Under the pieces are notes generated by a model. That model was not told the origin of the DNA and searched no databases. It saw only the letters and a list, made by a program, of their open reading frames with translations. The position numbers and the translations under genes are program-made. A stretch of 64,000 nt of DNA from Somniosus microcephalus (Eukaryota): NCBI GenBank assembly GCA_052327205.1, contig CM126207.1:165726001-165790000 (forward strand). The letters run 5' to 3'. Below, piece by piece: positions 37 to 53,534 of this stretch; within the stretch, counting starts at the first letter, position 1, and every line of letters starts with the position of its first letter.

Positions 37-55
37 TAGCCACTAGGTGGCAGCA
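37..55 (+). promoter_or_regulatory. CTCF-like binding motif
   Basis: TAGCCACTAGGTGGCAGCA matches the vertebrate CTCF core CCACNAGGTGGCAG; motif only, no binding evidence. Confidence 0.45.
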
Positions 56-130
56 CACAATGGGAATCGACCCAACTTACTCAAACCCCTGAATTAACTG
101 GAAAACAAACATAAATGCTACCGAGAGACA

Positions 131-8100: not shown

Positions 8101-9180
8101 GTGCCGGCAGGGGTGCACTCTCCGGTGGGAAATAAAATCTCTAATGGTGTTCTTCTAGCAGGGGGAGAAGATGTCTTCACCTGGGAACGCTGGAGACGCA
8201 CAGGCTCAGTCCTGCACCAGGTCTTAACGATGTTTAATGGAATAAAAGACTTCACCTAGGCAGCTCCAGCTGTCCCAGGCCAGGCAATAGAAGAGGGTGT
8301 TTGATAGTGGTGTGTGAGGCCTAGTGTTCTACAAGAGGCAGCACGGTGGCATAGTGGTTAGCACTGTTGCCTCACAGCGCCAGGGACCCAGGTTCAAATC
8401 CTGCCTCGGGTGACTGTCTGTGTGGAGTTTGCACATTCTCCCCGTGTTCACGTTGGTTTCCTCCGGGTGCTCCGGTTTCCTCCCACAGTCCAAAGATGTG
8501 CGGGTTAGGTTGATTGAGCATGATAAAAAATTGGCCCTTAGTGTTAGGGGGGATTAAATACGTGGGGATAGGGCTTGGGTGGGATGGCTGTTGGTGTAGG
8601 GACCGGGTTCTAGGGTTTGGATGATCAGCCATGATCTCGTTGAATGGCAGAGCAGGCTCGAAGGGCCGAATGGCCTACTCCTGCTCCTATCTTCTATGTT
8701 TCTATGTTTCTAAGAGCCACACACACACACAGGCACCCCTTGGTGTTCCGGTCTTCGTTCCTCCCCCCACCTACAGTACAAAGTCTTTTTGGAGAGTGCA
8801 CCATATAACACCCTCCTGCAGATGTTCAGTGAAGATGTTATCCTTCCCTCCTTCCAAGCAGTTGAAGGTGGGAGTTGGTTGTTGCTTCTCTCCCCTCTCT
8901 CCCTCTCCTGGAATGTAGGCCAATTTGGGGAGGCAGTGATGGAACGGCCTCTCCTCTGGTAGCTGTTGGCCTCCTTTTTCCTCTCCTCTCCTGTGTCCTC
9001 TCTCTCCAGGCACCTCAGTAGTCGCTGTTGTGGTAGTGGTGGTCTGTGGATTCTCCTTTTTCTCCTCCTCCCCCTGGTCAAGGTGACCAAAACTTTCCAC
9101 TCTCCTTCAGCTCCAAACAGCAGCACAGAGAGCAATGCAGTGAATGAATAAAGCTGGGTCGGTCCAGTCCCTGTTTTGTC
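5199..9180 (-). mobile_element. Tx1 copy B, internally deleted (5'UTR + most of ORF1 joined to the last ~0.8 kb of ORF2 + 3'UTR)
   Basis: ORF1 ATG at 7778; junction ~6055-6060 switches from ORF1 (GIRAE) to ORF2 C-terminus (PSELSPVRTEF); ORF2 stop 5276-5278; 3' end TAAAAGAC abuts copy A 5' end. Confidence 0.9.
8338..8711 (+). mobile_element. tRNA-derived SINE (V-SINE/HE1-like) with CR1-type tail, inserted in the copy B 5'UTR
   Basis: A-box TGGCATAGTGG, B-box GGTTCAAATCC (8391-8401), GGAGTTTGCACATTCTCCCCGTG body, tail GGCCGAATGGCCTACTCCTGCTCCTAT-(TTCTATGT)n; AAGAG duplicated at 8333-8337 and 8712-8716; absent from the other 5'UTR copies. Confidence 0.9.
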
Positions 9181-9257
9181 CTCTTTTAATTGGATCAAGT
9201 AAATTAAACAAATAAACTATAATTAGGACTGTAAAACTTTAAAAAAACCTTAGTAAA

Positions 9258-12200
9258 TCAAATTAAAATTTAGTTATCCAAATCAATTATGCACTCCAGT
9301 CCCTGTGGCGCCCACCGCTCATGGAAATACTCGAGCGTGCCGGCGGACACCACGTGCTCCATCTACAGGGCTACCCGGGTGCGAACATGGCCCCGGAAGA
9401 GAGGGAGGCAATCTGGATTAACGACACCCTCAACCACCCGCTGCCTGGACCAATTGATGGCTTTTTTAGCCTGGCCCAGGAGCAGACCCACGAGGAGGTC
9501 CTCCAACCTGCCCGCTCCCCTCCGCCCCGGGTGACTGTAGATCAAGAGCGTGGGACTGAAGTTCAACCAAAATTCGAGGAGCAGCCCCTTCAAATAATGG
9601 AAGAGGGGCTGCAACCTCTCACATTCTGTATATATATGAAAAACGGACTCCTCCAGGCCGCAGAACAAACAGGCGGCCTAGGAGTCCGTGAACCTACTTA
9701 AAAATATATTGCACGGGACTGCCCTGTGCAACACCCTCCAGGCCAAGTCCCCAATAGAACAGGAGAGGACTCCCGCATAGAGAGCCCTCCATTGGGGACC
9801 TCCGCCACCGCCGGAAGGCAAGGCGGCATGCCAAGGTGTGTCTGGATGGCAGGCAAAGATGGCAAAGTGGAGAGTGTGCAGGAGCAGCCCATACAGGAAA
9901 CACCTCCATGCGGAATGAAAAGGCACAGAGGGTATTTCCTTGAGACTGCTCAAGTTGTGAGGCGCCGGTTCCTGAGGGGAGTTTCAGGGCTGGACTCCGA
10001 TAAGGAATTCCGTCCGAACGGGTGAAAGCTCGGACGGGATCGCCCCATGTGCTTGAGCCGCCTTGATACACCTTGTGGCGCCGGGGCACAGCGTCGCTTT
10101 CATCAACTCAATGGCATTGACCGCGAGCTGGACGTTGGCCCAAGACATGTGCCGCGCCAACTCCTGTGGCGCCATCCAGCCCGGTCCTCTGACATCAAGC
10201 AGGTCCCCGACTCTAGTCACCTTGCCAGGCACAGCCCTGCGCTCGGCCAGCCACATGAACCCGCGGATGTGGAGGTGCGGATTCCTGAACAGTGGCTCCT
10301 GAAGGACAGCCACCATTCCTTACGGGGGAGAGCTCCGCCTGGAAGCGACATAGTTCCAAACCCATAGCAGATCCTGGTAGAAGACAGGCAGCTCCCACAG
10401 GCTGGCACGTGTGCCGCCCACTTCCAAAAACAGGAGCTGCATGTCATAATTGAGGCCGTGCAGCTGGCAGAAAAAATAAGTCACCAGCGCACAGCATCTC
10501 AGAGGATTCTCGAAGTTCAGGTATCTCTGCAGCATCTGAAGACGGAAAGTTGCAGCATGGGTGCAGAGGCACACCAGCACCTGACTGCCTCCCTAAGCAG
10601 GAGACTCAGAACCGTGGCAGAGACCCAGTGCTTCCTTTTGTCCCAGAAGAAGTCGATGAGCTTCTTCAGTATCTTGGCGACAAACGCAGGGGGAGGGATC
10701 AAAGTGACCTACCGGTACCACAACATGGTGGCCACCAGTTGGTTTATGACCATCGTTCGACCCCTGTAGGACAACAGTCGGAGCAGTCCTGTCCAGCGTC
10801 CTAAGCGAGTGGTGAGTTTGGCCTCCAACTCTTGCCAGTTCGCCAGCCAGGCGTCCTCGGCAGGGCTAAGGTAGACTCCCAAGTAGAGGAGGTGCGTGGT
10901 GCTCCAGGCGAAGGGCCTGAACTCCTCCAGCAGGGAGTCCACACGCCACTGACCCACCAGGAGTCCGGAACATTTCTCCCAGTTGATCTTGGCGGAGGAT
11001 GCTTCTGAGTAAATCTGCTGGCATTCCCGCATCCTCCGCATCCTCCGCATGTCAGCGGGATCCGTGACCGTGAGGAGCACGTCATCGGCGTAAGCTGAGA
11101 GGACCACCTCCACGCCCGGCCCTTGCAGAGCCAGTCCCGTCAACCTCTTCCACAAGAGGCGCAGGAAAGGCTCTACAGAAATGGCGTATAACAGGGCAGA
11201 CATGGGGCATCTCTGATGCACCCCCTCCCGAAGCGAAGGGGCGCCATCAACGACCTGTTAACTTTAATCAGACACAGAAGTCGGATCCGGGTGACAAAAT
11301 GCATCCCGAACCCGAAGGCGCGCAGAGTCCCGACGAGATACTCATGATCTACCCTGTGGAAAGTCTTCTCCTGATCCAGGGAAAGGAAGGCGACCGATAG
11401 ACCAGCCCTGTTGGAATGGTGAACCAGGTGACGGCCCAGATAGATGTTGTCATGGATGGTCCGGCCTGTGACCATGTCGGGCTGGTTGGGGTGGAACATG
11501 TGGGCCAGCACGGCACCAAGGCGAGCAGACATGGCCCTGGCAAAAATTTTGTAGTCCGTGCTTAGGAGGAAGACCAGGCGCCATTTCTTAAGGAGGCGGA
11601 GATCGCCCTTCTTAGGCAGCAGGACAATAATCGCCCTGCGCCAAGAGAGGGGCATCTCCCTGGTCACCAAACTTTCCCCCATGACCCACGCGTAGTCACC
11701 CCCCAAGACGTCCCAAAATGCCCTGTGGAACTCCACAGTCAGCCCGTCAAGCCACGGGGACTTTCCCCTGGAGAGCTGGCGGAGGGCGCCGGTCAGCTCC
11801 TCCAGACTCAGAGGAGCGTCCAATTTTTTGGTACCGTCCAGGCCGACCTTCGGCACGTCCTCCCACAAAACTCTGCACGCATCCACGCTGGACAGATCCG
11901 GAGAGAACAGAGCCCTGTAATAGCACGGGCCTGTGCGCTGATTCCCTTTGGATCCGAGACCAGAGATCCGTCATCGGCCAGCAGCCCCAAGAGCTGCTTA
12001 CGGACCCCCATCTTTTTTCCAGCGAGTAGATGCAGGGGAAGCCGCGGTCCAGGTCCCGCAGGAAATGGATCCGCGACCTCACGTACGCACCTCGTGTCCC
12101 AATGAGCTGCAGGTCCTTCAGCGCGCCCTTCTTCTCTTCGTACACCTTCCGCAGGGCCGGGTCCTCGACGACTTGACTGAGGTCGGACTCCAGGTCGAGC

Positions 12201-12932
12201 ACCTCCTTCTCCAACCGCCCAACCAGGGCCTCCCGCCCCTTGGTTGACCACTTCGCGTACTCCTGACAGAAGAGATGGACATGAGCCTTGCCCACGTCCC
12301 ACCATATCCTCAAGGAGGGGAAGCCGCCCCGCTTCCTTCTCCAGTCGGCCCAGAACCGACGAAATGAATCCTGGAACCGCGCGACCTCCAGCAGCAGGTT
12401 GTTATAATGCCAGTACGCGGATCCACCCAGCGCGCGAAGCGGAAGGAGCTCCACCCACACCAGGTGGTGGTCCGTGCACGGCACCGGCCGCATGGAAGCC
12501 GCCAGAATGCAGGAGACGTATGCCCGGGATATATAAAGGCGGTCGATTCTGGACCATCCTCCTCCAGACCTCACGCTGGTGAAGGCGCTGGAGTCGGGGT
12601 GGAGATGTCGCCAGATGTCCACCAAGTCGAAGGACCCGACCAGGTCCCTCAACTTCTCCATCGCCGCCGGGCATCGCTGGGGGGCCGAACGGTCCCTCGC
12701 CTCGAGGGTGCAGTTAAAATCCCCCCCCGAGGATGACGCACTCGCCTGCGTCGATGGAGCCCAGAAGAGCGGACAGTTCATCAAAGAAGCGCACTTGCTG
12801 CACTCCGGCCTGAGGGGCGTACACGCCCATTAGATGGAGCGGCACAACCCCCAGGCAAACAGTGACCTGGAGCAAGCGGCCCGGCATGTGCTCCTTGACC
12901 CCCAATTTCTCCGGCTGAAAATGCGGGGCCAG
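9258..12932 (-). pseudogene. Tx1 ORF2 pseudogene of copy C (EN C-terminal part, RT with YADD, C-terminal zinc finger)
   Basis: Fragments 11747-12784, 11173-11886, 10709-11221 (LSAYADD), 9984-10316, 9363-9668; multiple frameshifts. Confidence 0.9.
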
Positions 12933-16144: not shown

Positions 16145-18799
16145 CGTGGAGAAGCAGCCCCGAACGTTACCCACATTCTTCAATTACCTTCAGTATCACT
16201 AAATTCTAGCGATGAGCCATATTTATCCATAGAAATGCAGGTCAATAGAGTTCCTTTTCTTGTTGACACAGGAGCCACAACTTCACTATTAACAAAGCAA
16301 TACGCTGGAGGAACACCGTGTACTGGAAAGAATGTCACTTGTGTAGGACTTTGACGTCTCACAGACTATGACGTGGTCACAACCATTAGAAATACAAGCA
16401 GGCAATTTCTCTGGCCAGCATGCCTTTCTTCTATCAGATCAAGCCCCTATGAACCTTTTAGAGAGAGATTTGCTGTGCAAAATGCAGGCATCAATAATTT
16501 GTTCAGAAAAGGACTGCAGGTGCACATCCCTACCGATAGATGTACTATGTGCCCTTTACAAAAATGCTCCCCTCCCATCGTCTACCAGTGGACAAACAAA
16601 AACCAAGAATTAAGCCGCACATTAATGATGATTGTAGGAGCACTGCAATGTGCCTCAAGAGCAGTCTCAGAGTACCAGAAGGATTTGAAATTAGACAGCT
16701 GGCACATGAATCTGCATTGCACTGCCTTTTATGATGACACGGGAAAGAACACGACTATAAAAGATAGTTTCAAACCCTTTTTTGGGCCATAACTTCCTGT
16801 TTTAGCTATTCAATTGGATCCCGTTGCATGCGGCCTGCCTGGATGCCTGCTAATTCTAGCTGTTGTGCCACAAGCTCAAGGTATAACGCTCAATCACCAG
16901 TCTGTTTTATTTGTACCACATTCTGTCGAGGTGCTACTGACAAAATGCGCCACTCAGCAGTTGACATCAGCCCGCAGCAGTAAATATGAGGTTGAGTTAT
17001 TATCCAACTCTAATCTCCTAATTCAAAGATGTTCGGCCTTGAATCCAGCCACGCTGCTACCCACAGAAGAAGACAGAACACCACATTGCTGCGAAACGAT
17101 CACCCAATTGGTGACTAAGCCCCGAGCAGATTTATCAGAAACTCCGATTTCCAACAGTGACTGAGCATACTATGTAGACGGGTCAGCCCTTAGGGATGAC
17201 AAGGGATCACCTAGGGCTGGGTATGCCATATCAGATGATCACTCGATTGTGGAGGCACTCTCACTACCTCAATCCTTTTCAGCAACAAGCAGAACTCTTC
17301 GCTCTTACAAGAGCTTGCATATTGGCTCCTGATCAAACCGTTAATATTTATACCGACTCCAGGTATGCTTTTGGAGTTGCTCACGATTACGGACAGAGCT
17401 GGAAATTAAGGGGATTTCTAACTTCCTCAGGTTCAACTGTTAAGAATGCTGAACAAATCAATAATCTTTTAAAGGCCCTCATGTGTCCCACTAAGATTTC
17501 GGTTATTAAATATCAGGCTCATACAGGTAGTCAGGATCAGATAGCACTGGGTAACGAACGAGCAGACAGAGCTGCTAAGTCAGCAGCTTTGTCTGATACA
17601 GGGCCACAAGTTTCAGCCTTTGTTCTGCATCAACAGAAATCAGACAATGATCCACCCTCTATTAATGATGTTTTAGCCTTTCAGTCACAGGCTAACTCGG
17701 AAGAAGTGTTAAGTTGGGCAAGGGATTCTTGCTTTAAAACGCCTGAAGGGGTATGGGTTCACCATGACGGCCGCATGGTGGCTCCTAAATCTTTACTCCC
17801 ATGGATTGCCCGATGCGTTCATGTGTTCACACATGCGGGCAAAGGGGGGATGACAGACCATATTAATCAAACATGGTATGCACCAGGTATTTCGGCAATT
17901 GCAAAACAAATCAGTGAAAGGTGCACCACATGCCAGGAAATGAATCCAGGTAAAACAGAAAAAGTACAGTCTGCCTCCCACCCGAATCCATCATGCCCTT
18001 TTGTATATTTACAAATGGATTTTATTGACTTACCTCCATATCTAGGATTTAAGTATGTATTGGTAATTATAGATATGTTTTCAAGATGGGTCGATGCCTT
18101 TGCATGTAAAAAGAACGATGCTGCAACAGTAGCAAAGTGCTTGTTAAAAGAAATAATCCAAGGTTTGGAATACCTATGCAGCTTTCAAGCGATAGGGGAT
18201 CGCACTTCACTGGAACAATTGTAAAAGAACTATGTAAAGCTTTGCAGATTAATCAGCATTTTCACTGCAGTCATCATCCGCAATCTTCAGGACTGGTAGA
18301 AAGAAATAATGGAGTGCTGAAGAATAAGCTTTCTAAACTTTGCAATGCAACTGGACTTAAATGGGTCGAACTATTACCCTTAGCATTGATGATAATGCGA
18401 GCAGCAACTAACAGGGCAAATGGACTGTCACCACATGAGGTTGTCATGGGACGACCCCTAAGACTGCCATTCTCAGCACCATTTACGGTGAAACAAATGG
18501 ACATTAATAAAATGGATGAGAGTATGCTAAACTATTGCATTTCATTAACTAGATGTATTTCTAGCTTCCACTAACAGGTAATGGAAGCTCAAACGGAACC
18601 AGCAGAAGGAAAGTGCCATAACTTGGATCCTGGAGATGACGTCGATGTAAAAGTTTTCAAAAGAAAGAACGGTCTGCAGGCATGCTTTGAAGGACCATAT
18701 CAAGTGCTCTTAACAATAAACACAGCCATAAAAGTCAAGGAAAGATCTTCCTGGATGCATGCATCCCACTGCAAGAAGGCACCGAGTAGAGACAATTGA
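16145..18799 (+). pseudogene. pol: ERV pro-pol (protease, extra-domain remnant, RT deleted, connection, RNase H, integrase)
   Basis: FLVDTGATTS (D codon 16265); LDPVACGLPGCL; YVDGS/QAEL/YTDSRY/GNERAD; IN HVFTH..CTTC, QMDFI, SSDRGSHF, SGLVER; FEGPYQVLL..WMHASHCK. Confidence 0.9.
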
Positions 18800-19136: not shown

Positions 19137-19331
19137 CCTTGCCACTCCAGGAGCCACGTGGCCTCGTCTCCCGGAATAGTGTGGTTTTCTTGCAGGAAGC
19201 ACACCACATACTTTCCGTCCCGAAGGACCGAAAGGTTATTAAATCTGCGGCGAGCCTCCCTGCTGCCATTGATGTTGAGGCTGGCTATGGTTGTCTTCAT
19301 ATCAGAAGCATAGTGCAACCTCTACCTACAC

Positions 19332-21475
19332 CTAACGGGGGGAGGGAGCGCAGCTGCTAGTCGACCGCCACTCCCTCAGCAGCCCAGTGAGGAACGACCT
19401 GAGTCTATGCAGCTCGAGAGGACTCATGTCCTGGTCCGCACCCATGATTTTGACGGTGGCACAGACCGATCCAATGAGCAGTGCCAGCTCTGACCACCTG
19501 TCGAGGGCCAGCCGGGTCTTGTTTTGACGACCCAGGCACGCGGCCATAAAATCCCGGAGCTCCCTGACGGGAATGAGGGGAGACCAGGCGAGGGGCACGA
19601 GGTCATCCATCACCTCGTCGGCGATGGACTTCAACTCGTCCTCCGCGCCCATCACCGAGTCCCCGTCCTCCTCTGGGGGGTCGCCACCAGCGGCCGACCC
19701 ATCCGTCGTGCAGTGCGCAGCGAACGGCTGGGCCGCATCAACTGGTCCCACCTCTGCCCAGATCCCACCCCCAGGATTGGTGGGAGAGGATTCCTCCCTG
19801 GGCTCCTCCGGGGGAGCCATGCCAGAAGACGGTGGCAGTTCGGAGTCCCCCTCCGCCCCAGATGCCAGAACGCCCAGAGAAATCGGGGAGAAAACAAATT
19901 GAAATTCCACCAGGATGTCCGGTGCCAGAGGCACAGTCAGGGGGCCTTCCTCCTCCTCATCACCAGTCTCCGACCCAGTGGATGGGGTGTCCTGGACTAA
20001 AATTTGAACCAGGTCGAGCAGCCCCTGGGAAATGTCCGCCTCGCATTGGGTGTGCTCAGTTTCTTCCAGCACGCCCAACCCAGACCCCAGGCCGCCCGAC
20101 CCGGCGAGGGTTAACGGTACTGATAAAATATCTATTTCCACTGCGGGTTGTTCCGCGACCCCCCCCATGGGCAGGGTCTCGTCCCCATCACCGGGAGGCA
20201 CGTGCTGGACAGACACATCTGCCTCAGCCTCCCAAGGGACAGGTGACACCTGCCGAACGCTGGTGATGGTGACAGCAGGGCGGGGGGGGGCGCATAACCC
20301 GCGGTGGGCGATGACTCCCCCTGCTCGGAGGGATCCTACCTCCTCCCGGTCCTCCTCCTCTTCCAGGGGGTCACACCTTCTTTCTAGCGCGGAGGGAGCG
20401 AGGGAGACCTCCATGTCTGCAGAGGCCTCCTCCTCTGCTCCATCTGGCGGAGCAGGTTTGTCGGGTACTTCGGGCACGAGCCCGGCCGCAGGAATTGGCA
20501 TTTCCGCTACGGCGGTTGTGGCCACGGGCTCAGGCACGAGGACCCTCCCGCCCTCGTCTGCCCCGACCAAATCCGCGAGGAGGGCGGGTGTCAGGGGCTC
20601 TAAGTTTAGGGGCCGGCCCTCCGCCGGGGGACCCGCCCTGAGGTGTTTCATCTTACGCCGTTCCCTCCTTCCGCCCAGACGGGCTCCCTCCCCCCCGTCG
20701 GAGGCCCTGGTGGCGTCGGCCTCCGACGTCGACCGAGCATCAGTGGCTCCCGACGCACGGACTGATCAGTGGGGGGAGCGGCGGCAGCGCCAGCCTCAGC
20801 CAAACCAGACGATCTGGCAGCATTGGAGGCGGGGCAGTATTTTCTGATGTGCCCCACCTCCTTGCAGGCGTGGCACCGCACACCGTCCGACATCCAGAAG
20901 ACATGATAGGCGGTCCCCTCGTGGAGGATGATGTAAGCCCCGTCGTTGTCCTCCTCCCGCGCCAGCTGGATAAAATGCTGGCGCCGGAAGGAGAAAACGT
21001 GGTGAAGGCTGGCCACATGGAAGCCGAGTGAGATGGGTGTAAACCCCGACCTCACCTCCCCAAGACGGCGTAAGTGGGGGAGGAGGAGCTCACCAGGTAC
21101 AAAGGGCAGGAGGTTGGAAATAACCACCCTCTGCGCGGCGGCCTCGAGGGTGTCCACCGGCAGGAAGGTCCCGCCCACGGTGAGCCCCTTGGTGACGGCC
21201 ACGGACACCGCCCGCTCCGACCTCAGGAAGAACACAGCCTTCCCGTACATTTTTGAGGTGGCGAGGATGGTTGAAGGGCCGACAACCCCAGCCATGGCCT
21301 TTACACACGCCTCAATTGTCATTGTGGAGTGGGTGTAGCTCTTCACCCCAAGCTTTTTAGTTGTTAAAGAGAAAGGTGACGGGGCCGCAGAAGCAACGGG
21401 AGCAGCCGTGGCTGTGGCTGCCACCGCCACATATGACCTAGCCGGCCCCGACACTGGCGAAGAAGTAGACGCCAT
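19332..21475 (-). pseudogene. Tx1 ORF1 of copy C, split by a 1-bp deletion near 20767
   Basis: ORFs 20648-21475 (CHACKEVGHIRKYC) and 19332-20651; copies A and B read through this point. Confidence 0.88.
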
Positions 21476-22505
21476 TATGGGGTGCTTTTTTCAAAAAAGA
21501 GCTGTGCTCACCCCAAGTCACAAGCCTTAAGATATTTAAGAATGACTTCTGGTTCTTTTTGAAGTCCTCTATTTGAGCAGAGGGAGCTGTTTAAAATGAA
21601 GGCAAACCTCGCCCTTTATTCATTGAAACTGGGAGATAGGCCTTCTCCCCTCTGCTCAACAGGCAATTAATTAATAGATGGAAAGGAGGTGCCTCTTGAG
21701 AGAGAGGTATAGAGAGACAAAGAGAGGGAGAGAGGGTGGTGGGAAGGAGGGAGCCCGCAAGGGCAGGTATGCCACTCAGGATGGAGGGCGGGTGGGTGTC
21801 GGAAGGGGTGCACCCTCCGATGGAAAAACAACGTCTCGGAATGGTGTTCTTCTGGCAGGGGGAGAAGATGTCTTCGCCTGGGAAAGCTGGAGAATGCCCA
21901 GGCTCAGTCCCACACCAGGTCTTAACGATGTTTGATGGAATAAAAGACTTCGCCTAGGCAGCTCCAGCTGTCCCAGGCCAGGCAATAGAAGGGGGTGTTT
22001 GATAGTGGTGTGTGTGGCCTAGTATTCTACAAGAGCCACACACACACACAGACACCCCTTGGTGTTCTGGCCAGTCTTCTTTCCTCCCCCCCACCTACAA
22101 TACAAAGTCTTTTGGAGAGTGCACCAAATAACACCCACCTGCTGATGTTCATTTGGAGATGTTATCCTTCCCTCCTTCCAAGCAGTTGATGGTGGGTGTT
22201 GGTTGTTGCTTCTCTCCCCTCTCTCCCTCTCCTGGAATGGAGGCCAATTTGGGGAGGCAGTGGTGGAAAGGCCTCTCCTCTGGTAGATGTTGGCCTCCTT
22301 TTTCCCTCTCCTCACCTCTGTCTTCTCTCTCCAGGCACCTCAGTAGTCGCTGTTGTGGTAGTGGTGGTCTGTGGTTTTTCCTTCTTCTCCTCCTCTCTCT
22401 GGTCAAGGAGACCACCACGTTCCACTCTCCTTCAGCTCCAACCAGCAGCACAGAGAGCAAGGCAGTGAATGAATAAAGCTGGGTCGGTCCAGTCCCTGTC
22501 TTGTC
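20339..22505. repeat. 2167-bp direct repeat, copy 1 (ORF1 N-terminal part + 5'UTR)
   Basis: Matches 27505-29671 at offset 7166 at both ends; roughly 15-20 substitutions counted by eye. Confidence 0.93.
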
Positions 22506-22567
22506 CTCTTTTTATAAACCCAAAAATAAACCCTTAAACAAATAAACCCTTTAAATGACCCGATTAA

Positions 22568-25500
22568 TCAAATTAAAATTTGGCCTCTTAAATCGATTAC
22601 GCACTCCAGTCCCCGCGGCGCCCACCGGTCACGAAAGAGCTCGAGCTCGCCGGCGGACACCGCGTGCTCCATCTCCAGGGCCACCCGGCCGCGAACATGG
22701 CCGCGGAAGAGAGGGAGGCAATCCGGCCGGACGACCCCCTCGGCCGCCCGCTGCCTGGACCAATTAATGGCTTTCTTGGCCAGGCCCAGGAGCAGGCCCA
22801 CGAGGAGGTCCTCCGACCTGCCCGCACCCCTCCGCACCGGGTGACCGTAGATCAAGAGCGTGGGACTGAAGTGCAACCAAAATTTGAGGAGCAGCCCCTT
22901 CAAATAGTGAAAGAGGGGCTGCAACCTCCCACACTCGACATACACATGGAACACGGACTCCTCCAGACCACAGAACAAACAGGCGGCCCGGGAGTCCGTG
23001 AACCTACTTAAAAACCTATTGCACGGGACTGCTCTGTGCAACACCCTCCAGGCCAAGTCCCCAATAGAACAAGGGAAGACTCCCGCATAGAGAGCCCCCC
23101 ATTGGGGACCTCCGCCTCCGCCGGAAGGTAAAACGGCACGCCACGGCGTGTCCGGACGGCAGGCGAAGATGGCAAAGTGGAAGGTGTGCAAGAGCATCCC
23201 GTACAGGAAACCCCTCCGCGCAGAATGGAAAGGCACGGAGGGCGTCTCCTCGAGACGGCTCAAGTTGTGAGGCACCAAACCCCTAGGGGAGCTTTGGGGC
23301 AGGGCGCCGATATGGAATTCCGTCCAAACGGGAGTAAGCCCGGGCGGGATCGCCCCACGCGCTTGAGCCGCCTCGATACACCTCGCGGCGCCAGGGCGCA
23401 ACCTCGCCTTCACCGCCTCGATGGCATCGACCGCGAGCCGGACGTTGCCCCACGACATACGCCGCGCCAACTCCTCCGGCGCCATCCAGCCCGCTCCTCC
23501 GCCATCGAGTAGGTCCCCGACTCTAGTCACCCTGCCAGGCACAGCCCTCCGCTCCGCCAGCCGCCCAAACTCACGGACGCGGAGGTGCGGATTCCTGAAC
23601 AGCGGCTCTCGAAGGACAGCCGCCATTCCTGACGGGGGAGAGCTCCGCCTGGAGGCGACGGAGTTCCAAACCCATAGCAGTTCCTGGTAAAAGACAGGCA
23701 GCTCCTGCAGGCTGGCACGCCTGCTGCCCACTTCCAGAAACAGGAGCTGCATGTCGTAATTGAGGCCGTGCAGCTGGCGGAAGAAATACGTCACCAGCGC
23801 ACGCCATCTGGGAGGATTCTCGACGTACAGGTATCTCTGCAGCGTCTGAAGACGGAAAGTCGCAGCCTGGGTGCGAAGGCACACCAGCGCCTGACCGCCC
23901 TCCCTAAGCGGGAGACTCAGAACCGCGGCAGCGACCCAGTGTATCCTATTGTTCCAGAAGAAGTCGACGAGCTTCTTCTGTATCTTGGCGACAAACGCAG
24001 GGGGGGGGATCAGAGTAACCAACCGGTACCACAACATGGCAGCCACCAGTTGGTTTATGACCAACGCCCGACCCCTGTAGGACAACACTCGGAGCAATCC
24101 TGTCCAGCGTCCTAAGCGAGCGGTGACTTTGGCCTCCAGCTCGTGCCAGTTCGCCGGCCAGGCGTCCTCGGCCGGGCTGAGGTAGACTCCCAAGTAGAGG
24201 AGGTGCGTCGTACTCCAGGCGAAGGGCCTGAACTCCTCCGGCAGAGAGTCCACCTGCCACTGACCCACCAGGAGTCCAGAACATTTCCCCCAGTTGATCC
24301 TGGCGGAGGATGCGTCCGAGTAAATCTGCTGGCATTCCCGCATCCTCCGCAAGTCAACGGGATCCGTGACCATGAGGAGCACGTCATCGGCGTAAGCCGA
24401 GAGGACCACCTCCACGCCCGGCCCTTGCAGAGCCAATCCCGCCAACCTCTTCCGCAAGAGGCGCAGGAAAGGCTCCACGCAAATGGCATATAACTGGCCG
24501 GACATGGGGCATCCCTGACGCACCCCCCTCCCGAAGCGAAGGGGCGCCGTCAAGGACCCGTTAACTTTAATCAGACACTCCGCGGCAGCGTACAGAAGTC
24601 GGATCCGGGCGACGAAATGCGTCCCGAACCCGAATGCGCGCAGAGTCCCGAAAAGATACTCGTGATCCACCCTTTCGAACGCCTTCTCCTGATCCAGGGA
24701 AAGGAAGGCGACCGACAGACCAGCCCTCTGGGAATGGTGGACCAGGTCCCGGACCAGATGGATGTTATCGTGAATGGTCCGGCCCGGGACCGTGTAGGAC
24801 TGGTCGGGATGGATCATGTGGGCCAGCACGGTGCCAAGGCGAACGGACATGGCCCTGGCAAAGATTTTGTAATCCGTGCTGAGGAGGGAGACCGGGCGCC
24901 AGTTCTTAAGGAGGCGGAGATCACCCCTCTTAGGCAGCAGGACGATCAGCGCCCTGCGCCACGAGAGGGGCATCTCCCCGGTCGCCAAACATTCCCCCAG
25001 GACCCGCACGTAGTCGCCCCCCAGGATGCCCCAGAATGCCCTGTGGAACTCCACGGTCAGCCCGTCCAACCCCGGGGACTTCCCCCTAGAGAGCTGGCGG
25101 AGGGCGCCGGACAGCTCCTCCAAACTCAGAGGAGCGTCCAATTTTTCGGCGCCCTCCAGGCCGACCTTCGGCAGGTCCTCCCACAAAACTCTGCGCGCTT
25201 CCTCGCTGGACGGATCCGGAGAGAACAGAGCCCCGTAATAGGCACGGGTCTCCGCGCGGATTCCCTCCGGATCCGAGACCGGAGATCCGTCGTCGGCCAG
25301 CAGCTCCAAAAGCTGCTTACGGACCCCCCGTCTTTTTTCCAGCGAGTAGAAGAAGGGGGAGCCGCGGTCCAGGACCCGCAGGAACTGGATCCGCGACCTC
25401 ACGTACGCGCCTCGGGACCCGACGAGCCGCAGGTCCTTCAGCGCGCCCTTCTTCTCTTCGTACGCCAGCCGCAGGGCCGGGTCCTCGGCGACTTGACCGA

Positions 25501-26467
25501 GACGGGACTCCAGGTCGAGCACCTCCTTCTCCAACTGCCCGACCCGGGCCTCCCGCCTCTTGGTCGACCCCTTCGCGTACTCCTGACAGAAGAGATGGAT
25601 GTGAGCCTTGCCCACATCCCACCATAGCCTCAAGGAGGGGAAGCCCCCCTGCTTCCTTCTCCAGCCGGCCCAGAACCGACCGAACGAATCCCGGAACCGC
25701 GCGTCCTCCAGCAGCAGGTTGTTAAAGTGCCAGTACGCGGACCCCCCCCCGGCGCGCGGCGGCACGAGCTCCGCCCACACCAGGTGGTGGTCCGTGCACG
25801 GCACCGGCCGCACGGAAGCCGCCGGAACGCAGGAGACGTACGCCCGGGAAATGTAGAGGCGGTCGATCCTGGACGCTCCTCCCCCAGACCTCACAAAAGT
25901 GAAGGCGCTGGAGTCGGGATGGATATTACGCCAGACGTCCACCAAGTCGAGGGACCCGACCAGGTCCCTCAGCTTCCCCATCGCCGCTGGGCATGGCTGG
26001 GTACCCGTGCGGTCCCTCGCCTCGAGGGTACAATTAAAATCCCCCCCGAGGATGACGCACTCGCCCGCGTCGATGGAGCCCAAAAGAGTGGACACTTCTT
26101 CAAAGAAGCGCGCTTGCTGCGCACCAGCCTGAGGGGCGTACACGTTCACTAGATGGAACGGCACGCCCCCCAGGCGAACAGTGACCTGGAGCAAGCGGCC
26201 CGGCACGAGCTCCTTGACCCCCAAGATCTCCGGCTGAAAATGCGGGGCCAACAAGATAGCCACCCCACTGGAAACACTGGAGAGGTGACTCATGTTGACC
26301 CCTCCTTGCCACTCCAGGAGCCACGTGGCCTCGTCTCCCGGAACGGTGTGGGTTTCTTGCAGGAAGCACACCGCATACTTCCCGTCCCGAAGGACCGAAA
26401 AGTTATTAAATCTGCGGCTAGCCTCCCTGCTGCCGTTGACGTTGAGGCTGGCTATGTTTATCTTCAT
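22568..26467 (-). CDS. Tx1-clade ORF2 polyprotein (APE endonuclease, reverse transcriptase, C-terminal CCHC zinc finger), 1299 aa, uninterrupted
   Basis: SLNVNG, FLQETH, GGDFNC, SRIDRLY, TDHH (EN); KSPGLDG, NWRPVSLL, DQEKAF, GVRQGCPMSG, AYADD, YLG (RT); CLFCGLEESVFHVYVEC. Confidence 0.96.
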   Translation of the reverse strand: MKINIASLNVNGSREASRRFNNFSVLRDGKYAVCFLQETHTVPGDEATWLLEWQGGVNMSHLSSVSSGVAILLAPHFQPEILGVKELVPGRLLQVTVRLGGVPFHLVNVYAPQAGAQQARFFEEVSTLLGSIDAGECVILGGDFNCTLEARDRTGTQPCPAAMGKLRDLVGSLDLVDVWRNIHPDSSAFTFVRSGGGASRIDRLYISRAYVSCVPAASVRPVPCTDHHLVWAELVPPRAGGGSAYWHFNNLLLEDARFRDSFGRFWAGWRRKQGGFPSLRLWWDVGKAHIHLFCQEYAKGSTKRREARVGQLEKEVLDLESRLGQVAEDPALRLAYEEKKGALKDLRLVGSRGAYVRSRIQFLRVLDRGSPFFYSLEKRRGVRKQLLELLADDGSPVSDPEGIRAETRAYYGALFSPDPSSEEARRVLWEDLPKVGLEGAEKLDAPLSLEELSGALRQLSRGKSPGLDGLTVEFHRAFWGILGGDYVRVLGECLATGEMPLSWRRALIVLLPKRGDLRLLKNWRPVSLLSTDYKIFARAMSVRLGTVLAHMIHPDQSYTVPGRTIHDNIHLVRDLVHHSQRAGLSVAFLSLDQEKAFERVDHEYLFGTLRAFGFGTHFVARIRLLYAAAECLIKVNGSLTAPLRFGRGVRQGCPMSGQLYAICVEPFLRLLRKRLAGLALQGPGVEVVLSAYADDVLLMVTDPVDLRRMRECQQIYSDASSARINWGKCSGLLVGQWQVDSLPEEFRPFAWSTTHLLYLGVYLSPAEDAWPANWHELEAKVTARLGRWTGLLRVLSYRGRALVINQLVAAMLWYRLVTLIPPPAFVAKIQKKLVDFFWNNRIHWVAAAVLSLPLREGGQALVCLRTQAATFRLQTLQRYLYVENPPRWRALVTYFFRQLHGLNYDMQLLFLEVGSRRASLQELPVFYQELLWVWNSVASRRSSPPSGMAAVLREPLFRNPHLRVREFGRLAERRAVPGRVTRVGDLLDGGGAGWMAPEELARRMSWGNVRLAVDAIEAVKARLRPGAARCIEAAQARGAIPPGLTPVWTEFHIGALPQSSPRGLVPHNLSRLEETPSVPFHSARRGFLYGMLLHTFHFAIFACRPDTPWRAVLPSGGGGGPQWGALYAGVFPCSIGDLAWRVLHRAVPCNRFLSRFTDSRAACLFCGLEESVFHVYVECGRLQPLFHYLKGLLLKFWLHFSPTLLIYGHPVRRGAGRSEDLLVGLLLGLAKKAINWSRQRAAEGVVRPDCLPLFRGHVRGRVALEMEHAVSAGELELFRDRWAPRGLECVIDLRGQILI

Positions 26468-26497
26468 TTCAGAAGCACAACCAACCCCTACTTAAAC

Positions 26498-28641
26498 CTA
26501 ACGGGGGAAGGGAGGGCGGCCGCTAGCCGACCGCCACTCCCTTAGCAGCCCGGTGAGGAATGCCCGGAACCGACACAGCTCGGACGGGCTCACGCCCGTG
26601 TCCGCACCCATGGTCTTGTAGGCGACGCGGGCCGACCCGATGAGCAGCGCCAGCCCCGACCATCTGTCGAGGGCCTGCTGGGTCCAGCGGCGACCCTGGC
26701 TCGTGGCCACAAATTCCCGGAGCTCCCTGATGGGAATAAGAACGAGGGGGGTCCCGGCGAGGGGCGCGAGGTCATCCATCGCCTCGTCGGCGACGGACTC
26801 TAAGTCCTCCTCCGCCCCCACCACCGAGTCCCCGTCCTCCTCCGGGGGGTCGCCACCGGCGGCCGAACCGTCCACCACGCAATGCACATCGGGCGGCCCG
26901 GCCGCGACAGCCGGCCCCGCCTCCGCCCGGATCCCACCCCCAGGATCGGTAGCGGAGGATTCCCCCCCGGGCTCCTCTAGGGGGGCCGGGCCAGCAGGCG
27001 GCGGCGGTTCGGAGATCCCCTCCGCCCCAGGCACCGGAACGGCCGGAGAGATCGGAGAATACAAAAACCGGACCTCCTCCAAGTCGCCCGGCGCCGGAGA
27101 CACAGACCGAGGGCCCTCCTCAGCGATGCCACTGGCCTCCGACCCAGCAGACGGGGGAAAATTCTGACACACCTCGACGAGGTCGAGCAGCACCTGGGAA
27201 AAATCCGGGTCGTTCTGGGCGAGCTCATCCTCAGACGACTCGCCCGACCCGGTCCCCTGGCCGCCCGACCCGTCGAGGGGCAATGCCACCAGCAATGGCT
27301 CAATAACCGCCGTGGGTTGTTCCGCGACCCCCCCCACGGGCAGGGTCTCGTCCCCATCCCCGGGAGGCACGAGCTGGGCAGACGCTTCTGCCTCAGCCTC
27401 CCCAGGGACAGGCGACCCCTGCCGTTCGCCCGTAATGGTGTTAGCGGTGGGGTGGGGCGCAGTGCCCGCGGCGGGCGACGACTCCCCCTGACCGGAGGGA
27501 CCTTCCTCCTCCCGGTCCTCCTCCTCTTCCAGGGGGTCACACCTTCTTTCTAGCGCGGAGGGAGCGAGGGAGACCTCCATGTCTGCAGAGGCCTCCTCCT
27601 CTGCTCCATCTGGCGGAGCAGGTTTGTCGGGTACTTCGGGCACGAGCCCGGCCGCAGGAATTGGCATTTCCGCTACGGCGGTTGTGGCCACGGGCTCAGG
27701 CACGAGGACCCTCCCGCCCTCGTCTGCCCCGACCAAATCCGCAAGGAGGGCGGGTGTCAGGGGCTCTAAGTTTAGGGGCCAGCCCTCCACCGGGGGACCC
27801 GCCCTGAGGTGTTTCATCTTACGCCGTTCCCTCCTTCCGCCCGGACGGGCTCCCTCCCCCCCGTCGGAGGCCCTGGTGGCGTCGGCCTCCGACGTCGACC
27901 GAGCATCAGTGGCTCCCGACGCACGGAGTGATCAGTGGGGGGAGCGGCGGCAGCGCCAGCCTCAGCCAAACCAGACGATCTGGCAGCATTGGAGGCGGGG
28001 CAGTATTTTCTGATGTGCCCCACCTCCTTGCAGGCGTGGCACCGCACACCGTCCGACATCCAGAAGACATGATAGGCGGTCCCCTCGTGGAGGATGATGA
28101 AAGCCCCATCGTTGTCCTCCTCCTGCGCCAGCTGGATAAAATGCTGGCGCCGGAAGGAGAAAACGTGGTGAAGGCTGGCCACATGGAAGCCGAGTGAGAT
28201 GGGTGTAAACCCCGACCTCACCTCCCCAAGATGGCATAAGTGGGGGAGGAGGAGCTCACCAGGTACAAAGGGCAGGAGGTTGGAAATAACCACCCTCTGC
28301 GCGGCGGCCTCGAGGGTGTCCACCGGCAGGAAGGTCCCGCCCACGGTGAGCCCCTTGGTGACGGCCACGGACACCGCCCGCTCCGACCTCAGGAAGAACA
28401 CAGCCTTCCCGTACATTTTTGAGGTGGCGAGGATGGTTGAAGGGCCGACAACCCCAGCCATGGCCTTTACACACGCCTCAATTGTCATTGTGGAGTGGGT
28501 GTAGCTCTTCACCCCAAGCTTTTTAGTTATTAAAGAGAAAGGTGACGGGGCCGCAGAAGCAACGGGAGCAGCCGTGGCTGTGGCTGCCACCGCCACATAT
28601 GACCTAGCCGGCCCCGCCACTGGCGAAGAAGTAGACGCCAT
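26498..28641 (-). pseudogene. Tx1 ORF1 of copy D, split by the same 1-bp deletion (near 27933) as copy C
   Basis: ORFs 27814-28641 (275 aa) and 26498-27817 (439 aa); GGA TCT of copy B reads GA TCA here. Confidence 0.88.
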
Positions 28642-29671
28642 TATGGGGTGCTTTTTTCAAAAAAGAGCTGCGCTCACCCCAAGTCACAAGCCTTAAGATA
28701 TTTAAGAATGACTTCTGGTTCTTTTTGAAGTCCTCTATTTGAGCAGAGGGAGCTGTTTAAAATGAAGGCAAACCTCGCCCTTTATTCATTGAAACTGGGA
28801 GATAGGCCTTCTCCCCTCTGCTCAACAGGCAATTAATTAATAGATGGAAAGGAGGTGCCTCTTGAGAGAGAGGTATAGAGAGACAAAGAGAGGGAGAGAG
28901 GGTGGTGGGAAGGAGGGAGCCCGCAAGGGCAGGTATGCCACTCAGGATGGAGGGCGGGTGGGTGTCGGAAGGGGTGCACCCTCCGATGGAAAAACAACGT
29001 CTCGGAATGGTGTTCTTCTGGCAGGGGGAGAAGATGTCTTCGCCTGGGAAAGCTGGAGAATGCCCAGGCTCAGTCCCACACCAGGTCTTAACGATGTTTG
29101 ATGGAATAAAAGACTTCGCCTAGGCAGCTCCAGCTGTCCCAGGCCAGGCAATAGAAGGGGGTGTTTGATAGTGGTGTGTGTGGCCTAGTATTCTACAAGA
29201 GCCACACACACACACAGACACCCCTTGGTGTTCTGGCCGGTCTTCTTTCCTCCCCCCCACCTACAATACAAAGTCTTTTGGAGAGTGCACCAAATAACAC
29301 CCACCTGCTGATGTTCATTTGGAGATGTTATCCTTCCCTCCTTCCAAGCAGTTGATGGTGGGTGTTGGTTGTTGCTTCTCTCCCCTCTCTCCCTCTCCTG
29401 GAATGGAGGCCAATTTGGGGAGGCAGTGGTGGAAAGGCCTCTCCTCTGGTAGATGTTGGTCTCCTTTTTCCCTCTCCTCACCTCTGTCTTCTCTCTCCAG
29501 GCACCTCAGTAGTCGCTGTTGTGGTAGTGGTGGTCTGTGGTTTTTCCTTCTTCTCCTCCTCTCTCTGGTCAAGGAGACCACCACTTTCCACTTTCCTTCA
29601 GCTCCAACCAGCAGCACAGAGAGCAAGGCAGTGAATGAATAAAGCTGGGTCGGTCCAGTCCCTGTCTTGTC
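27505..29671. repeat. 2167-bp direct repeat, copy 2
   Basis: Near-identical to 20339-22505; similarity drops sharply below 27505. Confidence 0.93.
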
Positions 29672-30089
29672 TCTGTGCCTCTGGCCTCACCTGTTTGTTA
29701 TTAAAGTATTTTTCTCCTGTGTCTCATTTGAATAATTATGTCACGTGACCAATCAGGTCTGTATTTAAGCTTCCTGTTTCCTGTCCTCTTGGCTCAGTCC
29801 TGGGTTCGCCTGCCTGCAAGTAACAGCTCTTGCTGTGTCTCTGGCATTCTCGAATCTCTCTGTGTTTTCGAGTCTCAACTGAATCTCCTTTCGAGTGTTA
29901 CCATGTCTCTGTGTTTTCGAGTCTCAAGTGAATCTCCTTTCGAGTGTTACCCTGTTTCTATGTTCTCGAGTCCCAAGGAAGCATCTTTCGAGTTCTACCC
30001 GGTCTCGTGTCCTTGGATAGGTTTCCTGCGCTTGGGTCCACTACCGTAACCCTTACAAAACGGCCCCGTGAATGGACGTCCCCGTGACA
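29672..30089 (+). repeat. LTR-like repeat (possibly Gypsy-type) flanking the array
   Basis: CACGTG-CCAAT (29742-29753), TATTTAA (29762-29768), ends CGTGACA; TGTCACG at 29739 is its inverted complement; no TSD seen. Confidence 0.45.
29857..30003. repeat. 49-bp tandem repeat, ~3 units
   Basis: TGTGTTTTCGAGTCTCAA..TTTCGAGTGTTACC recurs at 29861, 29910 and (degenerate) 29959. Confidence 0.8.
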
Positions 30090-30421
30090 CAGGGTTGATG
30101 ATGAGTGGTTGTTTCCCCTGGCTGGAATGTCCAGAACTAGGGGCATAGTCTCAGGATAAGGGGTAGACCTTTTAAGACTGAGATGAGGAGGAATTTCTTC
30201 ACTCACGTTTGTGAATCTTTGAAATTCTCTGCCCCGGACGGCTGTGATTGCTGAGTGTTTGAGTATATTCAAGGCTGAGATAGGTAGATTGTTGGACTTT
30301 AGGGGAATCAAGGGATATGGAGATCGGGCGGGAAAGTGGAGTTGAGGTCGATGATCAGCAATGATCTTATTGAATGGCGGAACCGTATGGCCTACCCCTG
30401 CTCTTATTTCTTATGTTCTTA
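30090..30421 (+). mobile_element. CR1/HER1 LINE 3' fragment
   Basis: GAGATGAGGAGGAATTTCTTC (EMRRNFF) and TTCTTATG tail. Confidence 0.8.
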
Positions 30422-40539: not shown

Positions 40540-43350
40540 TTAGCTTAAGGTTTGGCCAACTTCAAGGAGATCAGACCGAGACTGCCTAAATTAAACAGGG
40601 CAATCTATTAATGTGTCAAAAGACAGAAGATCAGTGGGAGGTGTTCAAAAACGAATTTAGCGTGATATAGAACCAGTTTATACCATTATGGAGCGGTTTA
40701 TACGCCTAAAGAGTGACAAATCCCCCAGACCAGCTGTTTTTCACCCCAGGGTTTAAAAGGAAGTAGATGAGAGCATTGCAAAGGCCGGAAATATTATCGT
40801 ATACATTTGACGCGATTCAAGAACTGTTCCTTTAGATTGGAAAATTGAACATGTCACTCCGCTATTATAAGAACATAAGAACATAAGAAATAGGAGCAGG
40901 ATTAGGCCAATCTGCCCCTCGAGCCTGCTCTACCATTCAATAAGATCGTGGCTGATCTGATCCTAACCTCAAATTTTCTATCCCTCTCCACCCACCTGAA
41001 CCCATGTGATCTCCCGGGAGAGGCGAAAAACCAGATAAATAACCCAATGGCCAATTTGGGTGAAAAAATCTGGGAAATTCCTCTCTGACCCACCTAGGCG
41101 ATCGAAACTCGTCCAGGAGATCACTTTGTCCCTATATTTTCTACAGTACTTACCTTCTGTAAAGGCGATCTCCACCCCAGCCAGAAACAGGAATAAAACC
41201 ATCTCCTGAAATCTAACACAAAATTAGAACACAAGAAGTAGGAGCAGAACCAGGCTACACGGCCCCTGGGCCCACTCCACTACCCACAGGGCCATAACCA
41301 TTCCGAACCTAGACTCATGTCCAATTTCCTGCCCGCTCCCCATAACCCTTAATTCCCTTTACTTCTAGGAAACTATCTATTTCTGTTTTAAATGTATTTA
41401 ATGATGTAGCTTCCACAGCTTTCTGGGGCAGCAAATTCCACAAACCTATCACCCTCTGAGTGAAGAAGTTTCTCCTCATCTCAGTTTTGAAAGAGCAGCC
41501 CCTTATTCTAAGATGATGCCCCCTAGTTCTAGTTTCACCCATTATTGGGAACATCCTCACCGTATCCACCTGATCAAGCCACTTCGCAATCTTATATGTT
41601 TCAATAAGATCGCCTCTCATTCTTCTGAACTCCAATGAGTAGATTCCCAATCTACTCAACCTTTCCTCATATGACCACTCCCTCATCCCCGGGATTAACT
41701 GAGTGAACCTTCTTTGTACTGACTCGAGAGCAAGTATGTCTTTTCTTAAGTATGGACACCAAAACTGTATGCAGTATTCCAGGTGCGCTCTCACCAATAC
41801 CTTGTACAACTGCCGCAATACCTCCCTGTTTTTATATTCTATCCCCCTAGCAATAAAAGCCAACATTCCATTGGCCTTCTTGATCACTTGCTGCGCCTGC
41901 ATACGAACATTTTGAGTTTCGTGCACCAGGACCCCCAGATCCCTTTGTACTACAGTACTTTCCAGTTTCTTGCCATTAAGATAATAGAAAGTTGAGAGAG
42001 GGAACGCACGGTATTCTATACCAGTTAGGCTTACATCTCTTGTCGGAAAATTACTGGAGTCTCTAACTAAGGATAGAGTGACGATGTTCAGCTGATGACA
42101 TATTTGTAAAGGGCAATTGAAGCCTGACGAATCTGATTGAATTAGTTGAAGAAGTGACTGAAGTAGTAAACAATTAATGTCAATGGATGTTATTGATATG
42201 GACATTGAGAAGGCCTTCGATACAATCCTTCATAAGAGATTGCTAGCTAAATTGAAGCTCATGGAAAAGAGGACAAATTATTGACCTGGTTAGGAAATCG
42301 GTTGAGCGGCAGGAGAGAGAGAGCAGGATTCATCGGCAGATAATCTAATTGGCAGGATGTGATGAGTGGCATCCCACAGGAATCTGTGTTGGGTCCTCAA
42401 CTATTCACGACTTAGTTGACGGGATAGAGAGCCACATATCCAAGTTTTCCGATTACAAATAGATAATCGGGATTGTTATCAGTGTAGGTAGAAGCATAAC
42501 ATTACAACGGGATATTAATAGAATAAGTGCATGGGCAAAATTCTGGCAAATGTATTTCAAAATCGCTTAGTGTGAAGTCATACACTTTGGACCTTAAAAG
42601 GATAGAAGAGGGTAAATTCTAAATGGCGAAAAGCTCGAAGCAGTGGAGGCCAAATAGAATTAGGGGTCCATGTACATGGAGCATTAAAATGTCATGGAAT
42701 GGTACATAAAATCATAACGGCTAATGGAATGCTAATTTTTATATCTAGAGGACTAGAATACAAGGGGTTAGAATTCATGCTACAACCATACAAATCCCTG
42801 GTTAGACTACACCTGGAGAACTGTGTTCAGCTCTGGGAACCACATTTTAGGGATGACCAATTTGTCTTGGAGCGAGTGCAACGAAGATTTACCAGCATGA
42901 TACCTGGACTCCAAGGGTTAACTTACAAGGAGCGATTACTCAACATGGGTTTTATTCCGTGGAAATTAGAAGGTTAAGTGTTGATGTCATCGAAGATTTC
43001 AAGATATTATGCGGCACTGATAGGGCAGATAGAGAGAAAATATTTCCGCTGATTGAGATATCTAGGACTAGGGGATACAGCCAAAAATATAGAGCCAGGT
43101 TTTTCAAGAGTGAACTTAAGAAACACTTGTCAACGCAAAGGTTGGAAGATGTTTGTTATTCTGTTCTGCAAATGAGAGCTGATGCTGGTCCAATTGTTAG
43201 TTTTAAATCTGAAATTGATAGCTTGCTCATAACCAAAGGTATTAAGGCCCATGGGGCAAAGACACGTAAAGAATATTATGTCGCATGATCTCACCTGAGT
43301 GCCAGAACAGGCTCGAGGAGCTAAATGGCCTACTCTCTGTTTCCCCTGCG
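40540..43350 (+). mobile_element. Older CR1 LINE split by a younger antisense CR1
   Basis: GATTGGAAAATTGAACATGTCACTCC ends ~40868 and continues ~41985 with YIPVRLTSLVGKLLES; ORFs 42699-42977 and 42959-43288 give the CR1 C-terminus. Confidence 0.75.
40869..41984 (-). mobile_element. Younger CR1 LINE 3' fragment with extended double-tailed 3'UTR
   Basis: Open C-terminal ORF2 (YYLNGKKL..LEYCIQFW..MRRNFFTQRV) ending 41315; (TAAGAACA)n tail at 40869. Confidence 0.85.
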
Positions 43351-53517: not shown

Positions 53518-53534
53518 TCCTTTTTCTTTCTCTA

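Follow-up and report, generated by a model that had tools for sequence, protein, structure and literature searches.

A 64,000-nucleotide stretch of the Somniosus microcephalus genome (contig CM126207.1, positions 165,726,001 to 165,790,000; the window from here on) holds four Tx1-type long interspersed elements (LINEs), E1 to E4, arranged head-to-tail on the minus strand, all starting at one 20-bp site. Comparison of their sequences indicates that E1 is chimeric, with the 5' end of its resident neighbour, E2, and a young 3' part with an intact second open reading frame (ORF2). The explanation that we favour, at a probability of roughly 50%, is that reverse transcription began at the usual insertion site and that the complementary DNA (cDNA) was completed by copying the resident E2.

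The layout is based on a self-comparison of the window, in which long direct repeats on the minus strand fill 131-29671; the pieces were then mapped onto the most complete copy. Element positions are E1 coordinates, counted from window 29671. We call the 5' part of E1 A and the remainder B_new, and the matching parts of E2 A' and B_old (Table 1). An earlier note, made from the letters of this DNA, had described the order A, new segment, A', old segment, with a constant offset of 7166 and some 15 to 20 differences. This order is borne out. At that offset the alignment of A with A' is free of indels and has 17 mismatches in 2167 sites (99.2% identical), and same-offset matches drop to 25-27 per 100 beyond the 5' end and to 25-76 per 100 beyond the 3' end. 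Transitions account for 13 of the 17 differences, and 10 of the 17 are CpG transitions, a class that the note had also remarked on. With E3 and E4 as outgroups, 6 differences are derived in A and 8 in A', with 3 ambiguous. Both copies have thus aged since they split.

A and A' also have in common a 1-bp deletion near element position 1738 (window ~27934 and ~20768), which is the shared ORF1 frameshift of the earlier note. E3 and E4 do not carry it, and the ORF1 frame of E4 runs uninterrupted across this point (2934-4205). A programmed frameshift was rejected by eye here, as a canonical slippery motif is absent. Past the breakpoint E1 and E2 are 25.3% apart (148/584, positions 2168-2751), and in the last comparison window, 3' untranslated region (UTR) included, their divergence is 19.3%; the clear difference claimed for the ORF1 C-termini and 3' UTRs is therefore confirmed. 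Two descriptions stand in part. The old segment with the ORF1 C-terminus and ORF2 is present, but a 6.2-kb insert splits its ORF2, which breaks off at 19137 and continues from 12931. The chimera does span the full length of an element, but it carries the frameshift in ORF1 and the first frame ends after 275 amino acids.

A divergence of 0.8% lies within the range of two alleles, so that an assembly or haplotype switch might have joined them into an apparent duplication. Such a switch would have had to pass through only 34 identical bases, since A and A' run into sequences 25% apart. The CpG transitions, found on both copies, are moreover a signature of decay within the genome and not of read error. 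We regard an artefact of this kind as very improbable.

The chimeric element can be told from the distances to the older copies. The E1-E3 distance rises from 133/1246 (10.7%) before the breakpoint (positions 921-2167) to 146/582 (25.1%) after it (p=1e-14), whereas the E2-E3 distance is 134/1246 (10.8%) before and 66/582 (11.3%) after (p=0.75). The E3-E4 distance is likewise unchanged across the breakpoint (p=0.34). As the affinity of E1 shifts at the breakpoint while that of E2 holds, it is E1 that is, on the simplest reading, chimeric. Just past the breakpoint B_new is 20-33% from E2, E3 and E4, and over positions 2168-2751 E1 agrees with E4 at 17 sites and with E2 at 3.

Derived residues, polarised with protein outgroups, give the direction. 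Over 234 codons of ORF1, 9 derived residues are common to A and E3 and none to A and E4. In ORF2, shared-derived residues tend to place B_new outside E2 and E4 (11 vs 5 and 3) and outside E2 and E3 (5 vs 2 and 2), although some of them may reflect parallel CpG decay. Private derived residues number 7 in A against 15 in E4, and in ORF2 6 in E1, 41 in E2 and 50 in E4. CpG decay points the same way when judged at the CpGs of E4: A' and B_old are alike (16/60 vs 50/161 decayed, p=0.62), and A is more decayed than B_new (18/60 vs 22/165, p=0.006). It is thus well supported, as far as sequence comparison goes, that A is native to E2 and that the 3' part comes from a younger subfamily. The earlier note had argued for this direction, and both the shift in the distance of E1 to E3, which E2 does not show, and the decay contrast support it.

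The alignment that was to fix the breakpoint locates it in an interval, positions 2134-2167, and not at a single point. The last states that A and A' share against both E3 and E4 are at positions 2122 and 2133, and the first A/A' difference follows at 2168; E1 and E4 agree without mismatch over positions 2134-2180. The join is in register within ORF1, as had been noted, and the second ORF1 frame stays open across it. Perfect runs of at least 34 bp between B_new and B_old (6 of the 15 runs of at least 25 bp) cover only about 223 of 4933 bp. That the junction falls in such a patch therefore points to a homology-guided join, whatever the mechanism. The copied tract extends from position 108 or lower to at least 2133, nearly back to the nick.

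E2 carries a substitution of its own and a +1 indel exactly where the duplication ends on its 3' side (window 20334-20338), and a +2 indel at window ~20280, about 55 bp further on, brings the frame back. These indels, at about positions 2168-2172 and 2226, are found in E2 only. The edge changes could be a repair scar or a mismatch that bounded the pairing.

The site itself is supported by the motif GACAAGACAGGGACTGGACC, which has 4 matches in the window against 0.01 expected by chance and occurs at all three inter-element junctions and at the outer flank of this one locus. A terminal AAAAGAG or AAAAGAC stands immediately before the motif in each of the three upstream elements; in E1 this end reads AAAAAGAG, and E2 and E3 are like it. 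Since four starts and the upstream ends share this motif, a usual insertion site within the array is real by these matches. B_new, too, has its 3' end right next to this motif, as at the two other junctions, in support of the suggestion that synthesis started at the usual site.

We propose the following course of events. A Tx1-type family inserts repeatedly at one site, each time probably in front of the previous copy. In target-primed reverse transcription (TPRT), the duplication has its left edge where the first nick is made, and cDNA synthesis proceeds from the downstream DNA (PMC2881922). Here the young subfamily would nick the usual site directly before the decayed E2, and about 5.0 kb would be reverse-transcribed before synthesis stopped near position 2150. 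The 3' end of the cDNA would then pair with the 34-bp patch 2.15 kb inside E2, and synthesis would carry on along E2 until it reached the nick. As template, it might have used the resident DNA, in a manner like synthesis-dependent strand annealing (SDSA) or break-induced replication (BIR), by a host polymerase or the reverse transcriptase (RT), or else a transcript of the resident. The first 2167 bp of E2, frameshift included, would be duplicated around a new 5-kb segment, giving flank-A-B_new-A'-B_old in one step.

Several features expected of a large duplication coupled to TPRT are found here: an intact 3' end at the site, a direct duplication that starts from the nick and an in-register homologous junction. 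The location of the 3' end, a tract that reaches near the nick and overlapping ages fit completion during integration, and we infer that the chimera more likely formed then than later. Of the earlier proposal of TPRT with homology-guided completion, the direction, the 34-bp homologous join and the placement of the 3' end at the usual site hold up; duplication and insertion in a single event are compatible with the ages, which overlap within wide intervals.

These ages were estimated from decay. Divergence between A and A' amounts to 0.39% per copy (95% confidence interval (CI) 0.23-0.63), and to 0.53% (0.27-0.92) in the ORF1 part. In B_new, 3/244, 9/346 or 14/493 conserved codons are changed, depending on the set, which corresponds to 0.52, 1.13 or 1.25% per nonsynonymous site. 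These rates are upper bounds, with 0.52% (CI 0.11-1.53) for the strict set and 1.25% for the loose one. The A/A' split and B_new are compatible in age, their intervals being wide and overlapping. By comparison, conserved-codon decay is about 5% in E2 and 5-7% in E4. Private ORF2 changes are rich in synonymous ones in E1 (26:25, p=0.003 vs neutral), and those of E2 and E4 fit neutrality (55:29 and 56:22). A value of 5.6% from conserved ORF1 codons was left unused as an age of A: of its 11 changes, E3 has 6 in identical form, and these probably characterise the subfamily.

Several observations weigh against this account. Judged at the CpGs of E3, decay seems to have gone less far in A' than in B_old (12/66 vs 27/78, p=0.04), and A is indistinguishable from B_new (13/66 vs 8/74, p=0.16). 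Only 6 of the 45 A-specific states in the ORF1 part are of CpG type. The 5' UTR of A differs from a common state of E3 and E4 by 8 indels (positions 200-914), in conflict with the kinship of E2 and E3, which resemble one subfamily elsewhere; an additional, older mosaic event is therefore needed. On the looser estimates of its decay (1.13-1.25%), B_new could have 2-3 times the age of the duplication. The E2/E3 pair has no comparable duplication, and the sequence does not separate completion during integration from a crossover with an empty allele. The A-specific nonsynonymous to synonymous ratio, 15:10 over 364 codons, does not distinguish decay from lineage change.

Some of these points would suit the opposite direction, or a subfamily trait, in which A comes from the young family and either E1 converted the 5' end of the resident, or two copies of a frameshifted master inserted and a deletion between them joined the first to the old 3' part. 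The CpG decay of A is intermediate at the CpGs of E3, and its 5' UTR stands apart from that of E3 and E4 as it would in a divergent subfamily. Up to position 910, 43 of the 67 non-CpG sites private to E2 or E4 are private to E2; A has one frameshift and no stops, and B_old is heavily broken. We nonetheless hold this direction to be unlikely. The young master would itself have to recombine at nearly the same point, given that A goes with E3 (9 vs 0) and B_new falls outside E2 and E3 (17 vs 3). The C-terminal ORF1 frame is open through 25% divergence, which implies a master with ORF1 read through, and A has accumulated 7 private derived residues over 234 codons, compared with 6 for B_new over the first 650 codons of its ORF2.

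A less improbable competitor, and a possible one, is that a full-length young element inserted normally and, before the insertion had become fixed, received the resident 5' 2.15 kb by a crossover or a long conversion with an empty allele that was aligned through the flank, the exchange having its end in the 34-bp patch. The same product would come from a long conversion by the adjacent copy. Later recombination predicts the same flank-A-B_new-A'-B_old structure and direction, a frameshift in both copies and a junction in register, and it would accommodate an A/A' split more recent than B_new (0.39-0.53% per copy against 1.13-1.25%). L1 repeats and Alu repeats that are 85-90% identical are known to recombine. 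This account requires two events, however, and recombination through sequence that is ~10-15% diverged, which mismatch repair disfavours. The strict age of 0.52% also matches the per-copy ORF1 divergence of A, 0.53%, and a conversion from the adjacent copy has no reason to reach almost to position 1.

Two further alternatives of the earlier note, integration of a circular copy by one crossover and unequal crossover, here as a simple unequal exchange between sister chromatids, would both yield in-register chimeric junctions. The structures that they predict are absent, so that either would need a second event as well. A circle should leave one old-type and one young-type 5' half, instead of the two 99.2% identical halves seen. 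After an unequal sister exchange a further young element, complete, should be found on the flank side, where the sequence is non-Tx1 from 29672 onward. We give them next to no credence, even less than an assembly artefact. Completion of the cDNA on the resident E2 remains our preferred explanation.

Chimeras of new and endogenous L1 copies with duplications have reportedly been obtained in cultured cells (Gilbert 2002, Gilbert 2005, Symer 2002). In human L1, 22 templated, SDSA-like insertions, in which the cDNA leaves its RNA and pairs with homologous DNA close by, duplicate nearby non-L1 DNA, typically by less than 250 bp (10.1101/2024.08.27.596794), and tandem duplications of 1-10 kb at TPRT sites are taken as large target-site duplications (TSDs; 10.1101/2024.12.14.628481). 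The human cases are somatic or from cell culture and concern a dispersed LINE, whereas the present case is heritable, has an adjacent older element as template and yields a full-length inter-subfamily chimera. R1 in Drosophila 28S genes builds head-to-tail arrays by using the target duplication in front of a resident's 5' end as its insertion site, and its cDNA anneals to the homologous target (PMC2718515). The precise 5' junctions made by cDNA annealing resemble the array described here, but the TSD between copies is 14 bp, and annealing involves at most 27 nt of rRNA and not a point 2 kb inside the resident. The 5' junction of R2Bm forms by strand invasion, and R9 has a TSD of 126 bp from distant staggered cleavage (PMC6895275). 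Homology-guided joining of cDNA and long duplications are thus alike, but the endonuclease is of another class, the upstream homology is 27 nt and the R9 TSD is ~17 times shorter.

Closest in kind are the Tx1 elements themselves. In crocodilians, Tx1 families prefer transposons or long terminal repeat (LTR) retrotransposons, and tandem inserts of SINEU-3, mobilised by Tx1, sandwich a TSD (PMC4494074). Xenopus Tx1L and the crocodilian Tx1-Mar, Tx1-8_Crp and Tx1-4_AMi share with E1 the two ORFs, an APE-RT ORF2 (50% identical to that of Xenopus Tx1) and repeated insertion at one site in an apparent repeat. The duplications described there are short, 16 bp for SINEU-3, and the accessible text of PMC4494074 describes no kilobase duplication or resident chimera. 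In the available portions of PMC3414825, PMC1920257, PMC4859970, PMC5105311 and 10.1101/522623 there is no closer case, and a kilobase-scale, resident-templated duplication in a Tx1 array was not found in the literature covered, which was mostly open-access, in part and without supplements. Every ingredient is precedented; what is new, as a variant seen at one locus, is that a target-specific array holds a full-length chimera of two subfamilies and that this chimera is heritable.

Table 1. Coordinates of the Tx1-type array and its parts in the window.
Feature	Window position	Strand	Description
E1	29671-22506	-	chimeric element
E2	22505-9181	-	resident; split by a 6.2-kb insert at 19136-12932
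E3	9180-5199	-	older, internally deleted; short interspersed element (SINE) at 8341-8711
E4	5198-131	-	older; ends in ORF2 at window 131
A	27505-29671	-	5' 2167 bp of E1: target motif, 5' UTR, N-terminal half of ORF1 with frameshift; near-copy of the 5' part of E2
B_new	22506-27504	-	young-subfamily segment: C-terminal half of ORF1, intact ORF2, 3' UTR, A-rich end AAAAAGAG
A'	20339-22505	-	5' part of resident E2; presumed donor
B_old part 1	19137-20338	-	C-terminal half of ORF1 and start of ORF2 of E2
B_old part 2	9181-12931	-	remainder of the decayed E2 ORF2, and 3' UTR
Junction interval	27505-27538	-	34-bp purine-rich perfect-match patch; partner 20339-20372; element positions 2134-2167
Insertion-site motif GACAAGACAGGGACTGGACC	22486-22505; 29652-29671; 9161-9180; 5179-5198	-	E1/E2 junction and other element starts
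5' flank	29672-30089	-	unique 418-bp piece beginning TGTCACGG; 49-bp tandem repeat, 2.8 copies
ORF1 first frame	27814-28641	-	275 amino acids, CX2CX4HX4C knuckle in the translation
ORF1 second frame	26498-27931	-	477 codons; spans the chimeric junction
ORF2	22568-26467	-	1299 amino acids, open; APE endonuclease, reverse transcriptase, zinc-binding region

The protein-coding content points to a Tx1-type LINE. ORF2 matches PF03372 and PF00078 above cut-off, and PF13966 below it. Its best match named after an element is the Xenopus Tx1 149-kDa protein (50% identical over 99%). Among named matches, identity is highest to sequences of Heterodontus (73%, covering 27% of the query) and Hemitrygon (68%, covering 33%), which by itself suggests a shark or ray as host. 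Traits of the Tx1 clade found here are an ORF2 with APE and RT, a separate ORF1 with a CCHC knuckle, frameshifted in E1 and E2, and a site preference, seen at one locus.

The first ORF1 frame stops early because of the 1-bp deletion common to A and A'. It has no Pfam match; a profile search, which returned distant relatives only, gave 1508 at E<=0.001, the best 60% identical. The last 110 amino acids of the second frame match an ORF1 relative (34%, E 6e-10). Two dedicated searches for close ORF1 relatives with the young subfamily's own 5' half found none. A conserved residue of the E1 RT is changed (D598E). Given this change and the frameshifted ORF1, E1 is probably not an active master.

The 5' flank is single copy in the window and is probably a host repeat targeted by the E1 family; it appears LTR-like. 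It adjoins a fragment of a repeat that also occurs at 41-57 kb. No Rfam family and no tRNA gene was found in the 64-kb window, so the target is not an RNA gene detectable in this way.

From the decay of its members, the array appears to have grown with each new copy in front of the previous one, E1 being the youngest. In E2, several frameshifts and 6 stops in 1270 codons interrupt ORF2; in E4 there are 7 stops in 635 codons. The insert in the E2 ORF2 is retrovirus-like: on the plus strand it matches RNase H and integrase (17178-18224), and it is otherwise broken; 53 bp of ORF2 are gone at its site. E3 lacks element positions 2752-6320: at window 6058-6059 position 2751 passes directly to 6321, and this 3.57-kb internal deletion takes the end of ORF1 and most of ORF2. 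We considered reading the deletion as a truncated insertion completed from E4 and rejected it, the ORF1 of E3 being nearer to E2 (9-13%) than to E4 (15-19%). Nor do we claim a giant duplication between E3 and E4, which differ by 10.8% (34/316) at positions 601-920 against 5.7% (34/594) at 1-600, beyond plain decay.

The insert in the E3 5' UTR has CTCTT on either side and consists of a SINE and an opposite-orientation LINE 3' tail, presumably HE1 and CR1; parts of it are found again elsewhere in the window. E4 breaks off in ORF2, and unrelated sequence starting with TGT, possibly another insertion, fills window 1-130. The far end of the array lies beyond the window.

Outside the array, a 777-bp direct repeat (54793-55569 and 60480-61255, 89% identical, 5.7 kb apart) may represent the LTRs of an old element. 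Another repeat family is present as 65-80% identical fragments in both orientations at 30089-30421, 40869-41986, 47090-48086, 52232-54404 and 56541-58045. An open frame at 41315-42229 resembles the C-terminus of a LINE RT, which we take to be of CR1 type, and has no Pfam match.

This locus touches on two biological questions: what completes the 5' junctions of LINEs, and by what route modules such as the 5' UTR and ORF1 pass between subfamilies. In target-specific arrays a homologous template lies directly beside the nick. It is conceivable, if doubtful, that array neighbours routinely template the completion of truncated cDNAs. In that case, insertions otherwise truncated at the 5' end would become full-length chimeras between subfamilies, the duplications would vary in length on the kilobase scale, and the arrays would be where Tx1 lineages swap 5' UTR and ORF1. 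An older switch in topology lies at positions 910-935 (window ~7870-7900), where E3 groups with E4 before (8 shared indels) and with E2 after (permutation p=0.0002). If routine templating were true, this mosaic would be a possible earlier event of the same kind. Arrays would then, if such events recur, form a countable and datable germline record of homology-directed resolution, with neighbour-identical 5' parts and variable breakpoints. The chimera at E1/E2 took over a broken ORF1 and is probably a dead end. Even so, what passes for a ‘full-length young element’ can, as here, turn out to be a local mosaic, and this bears on the dating of subfamilies.

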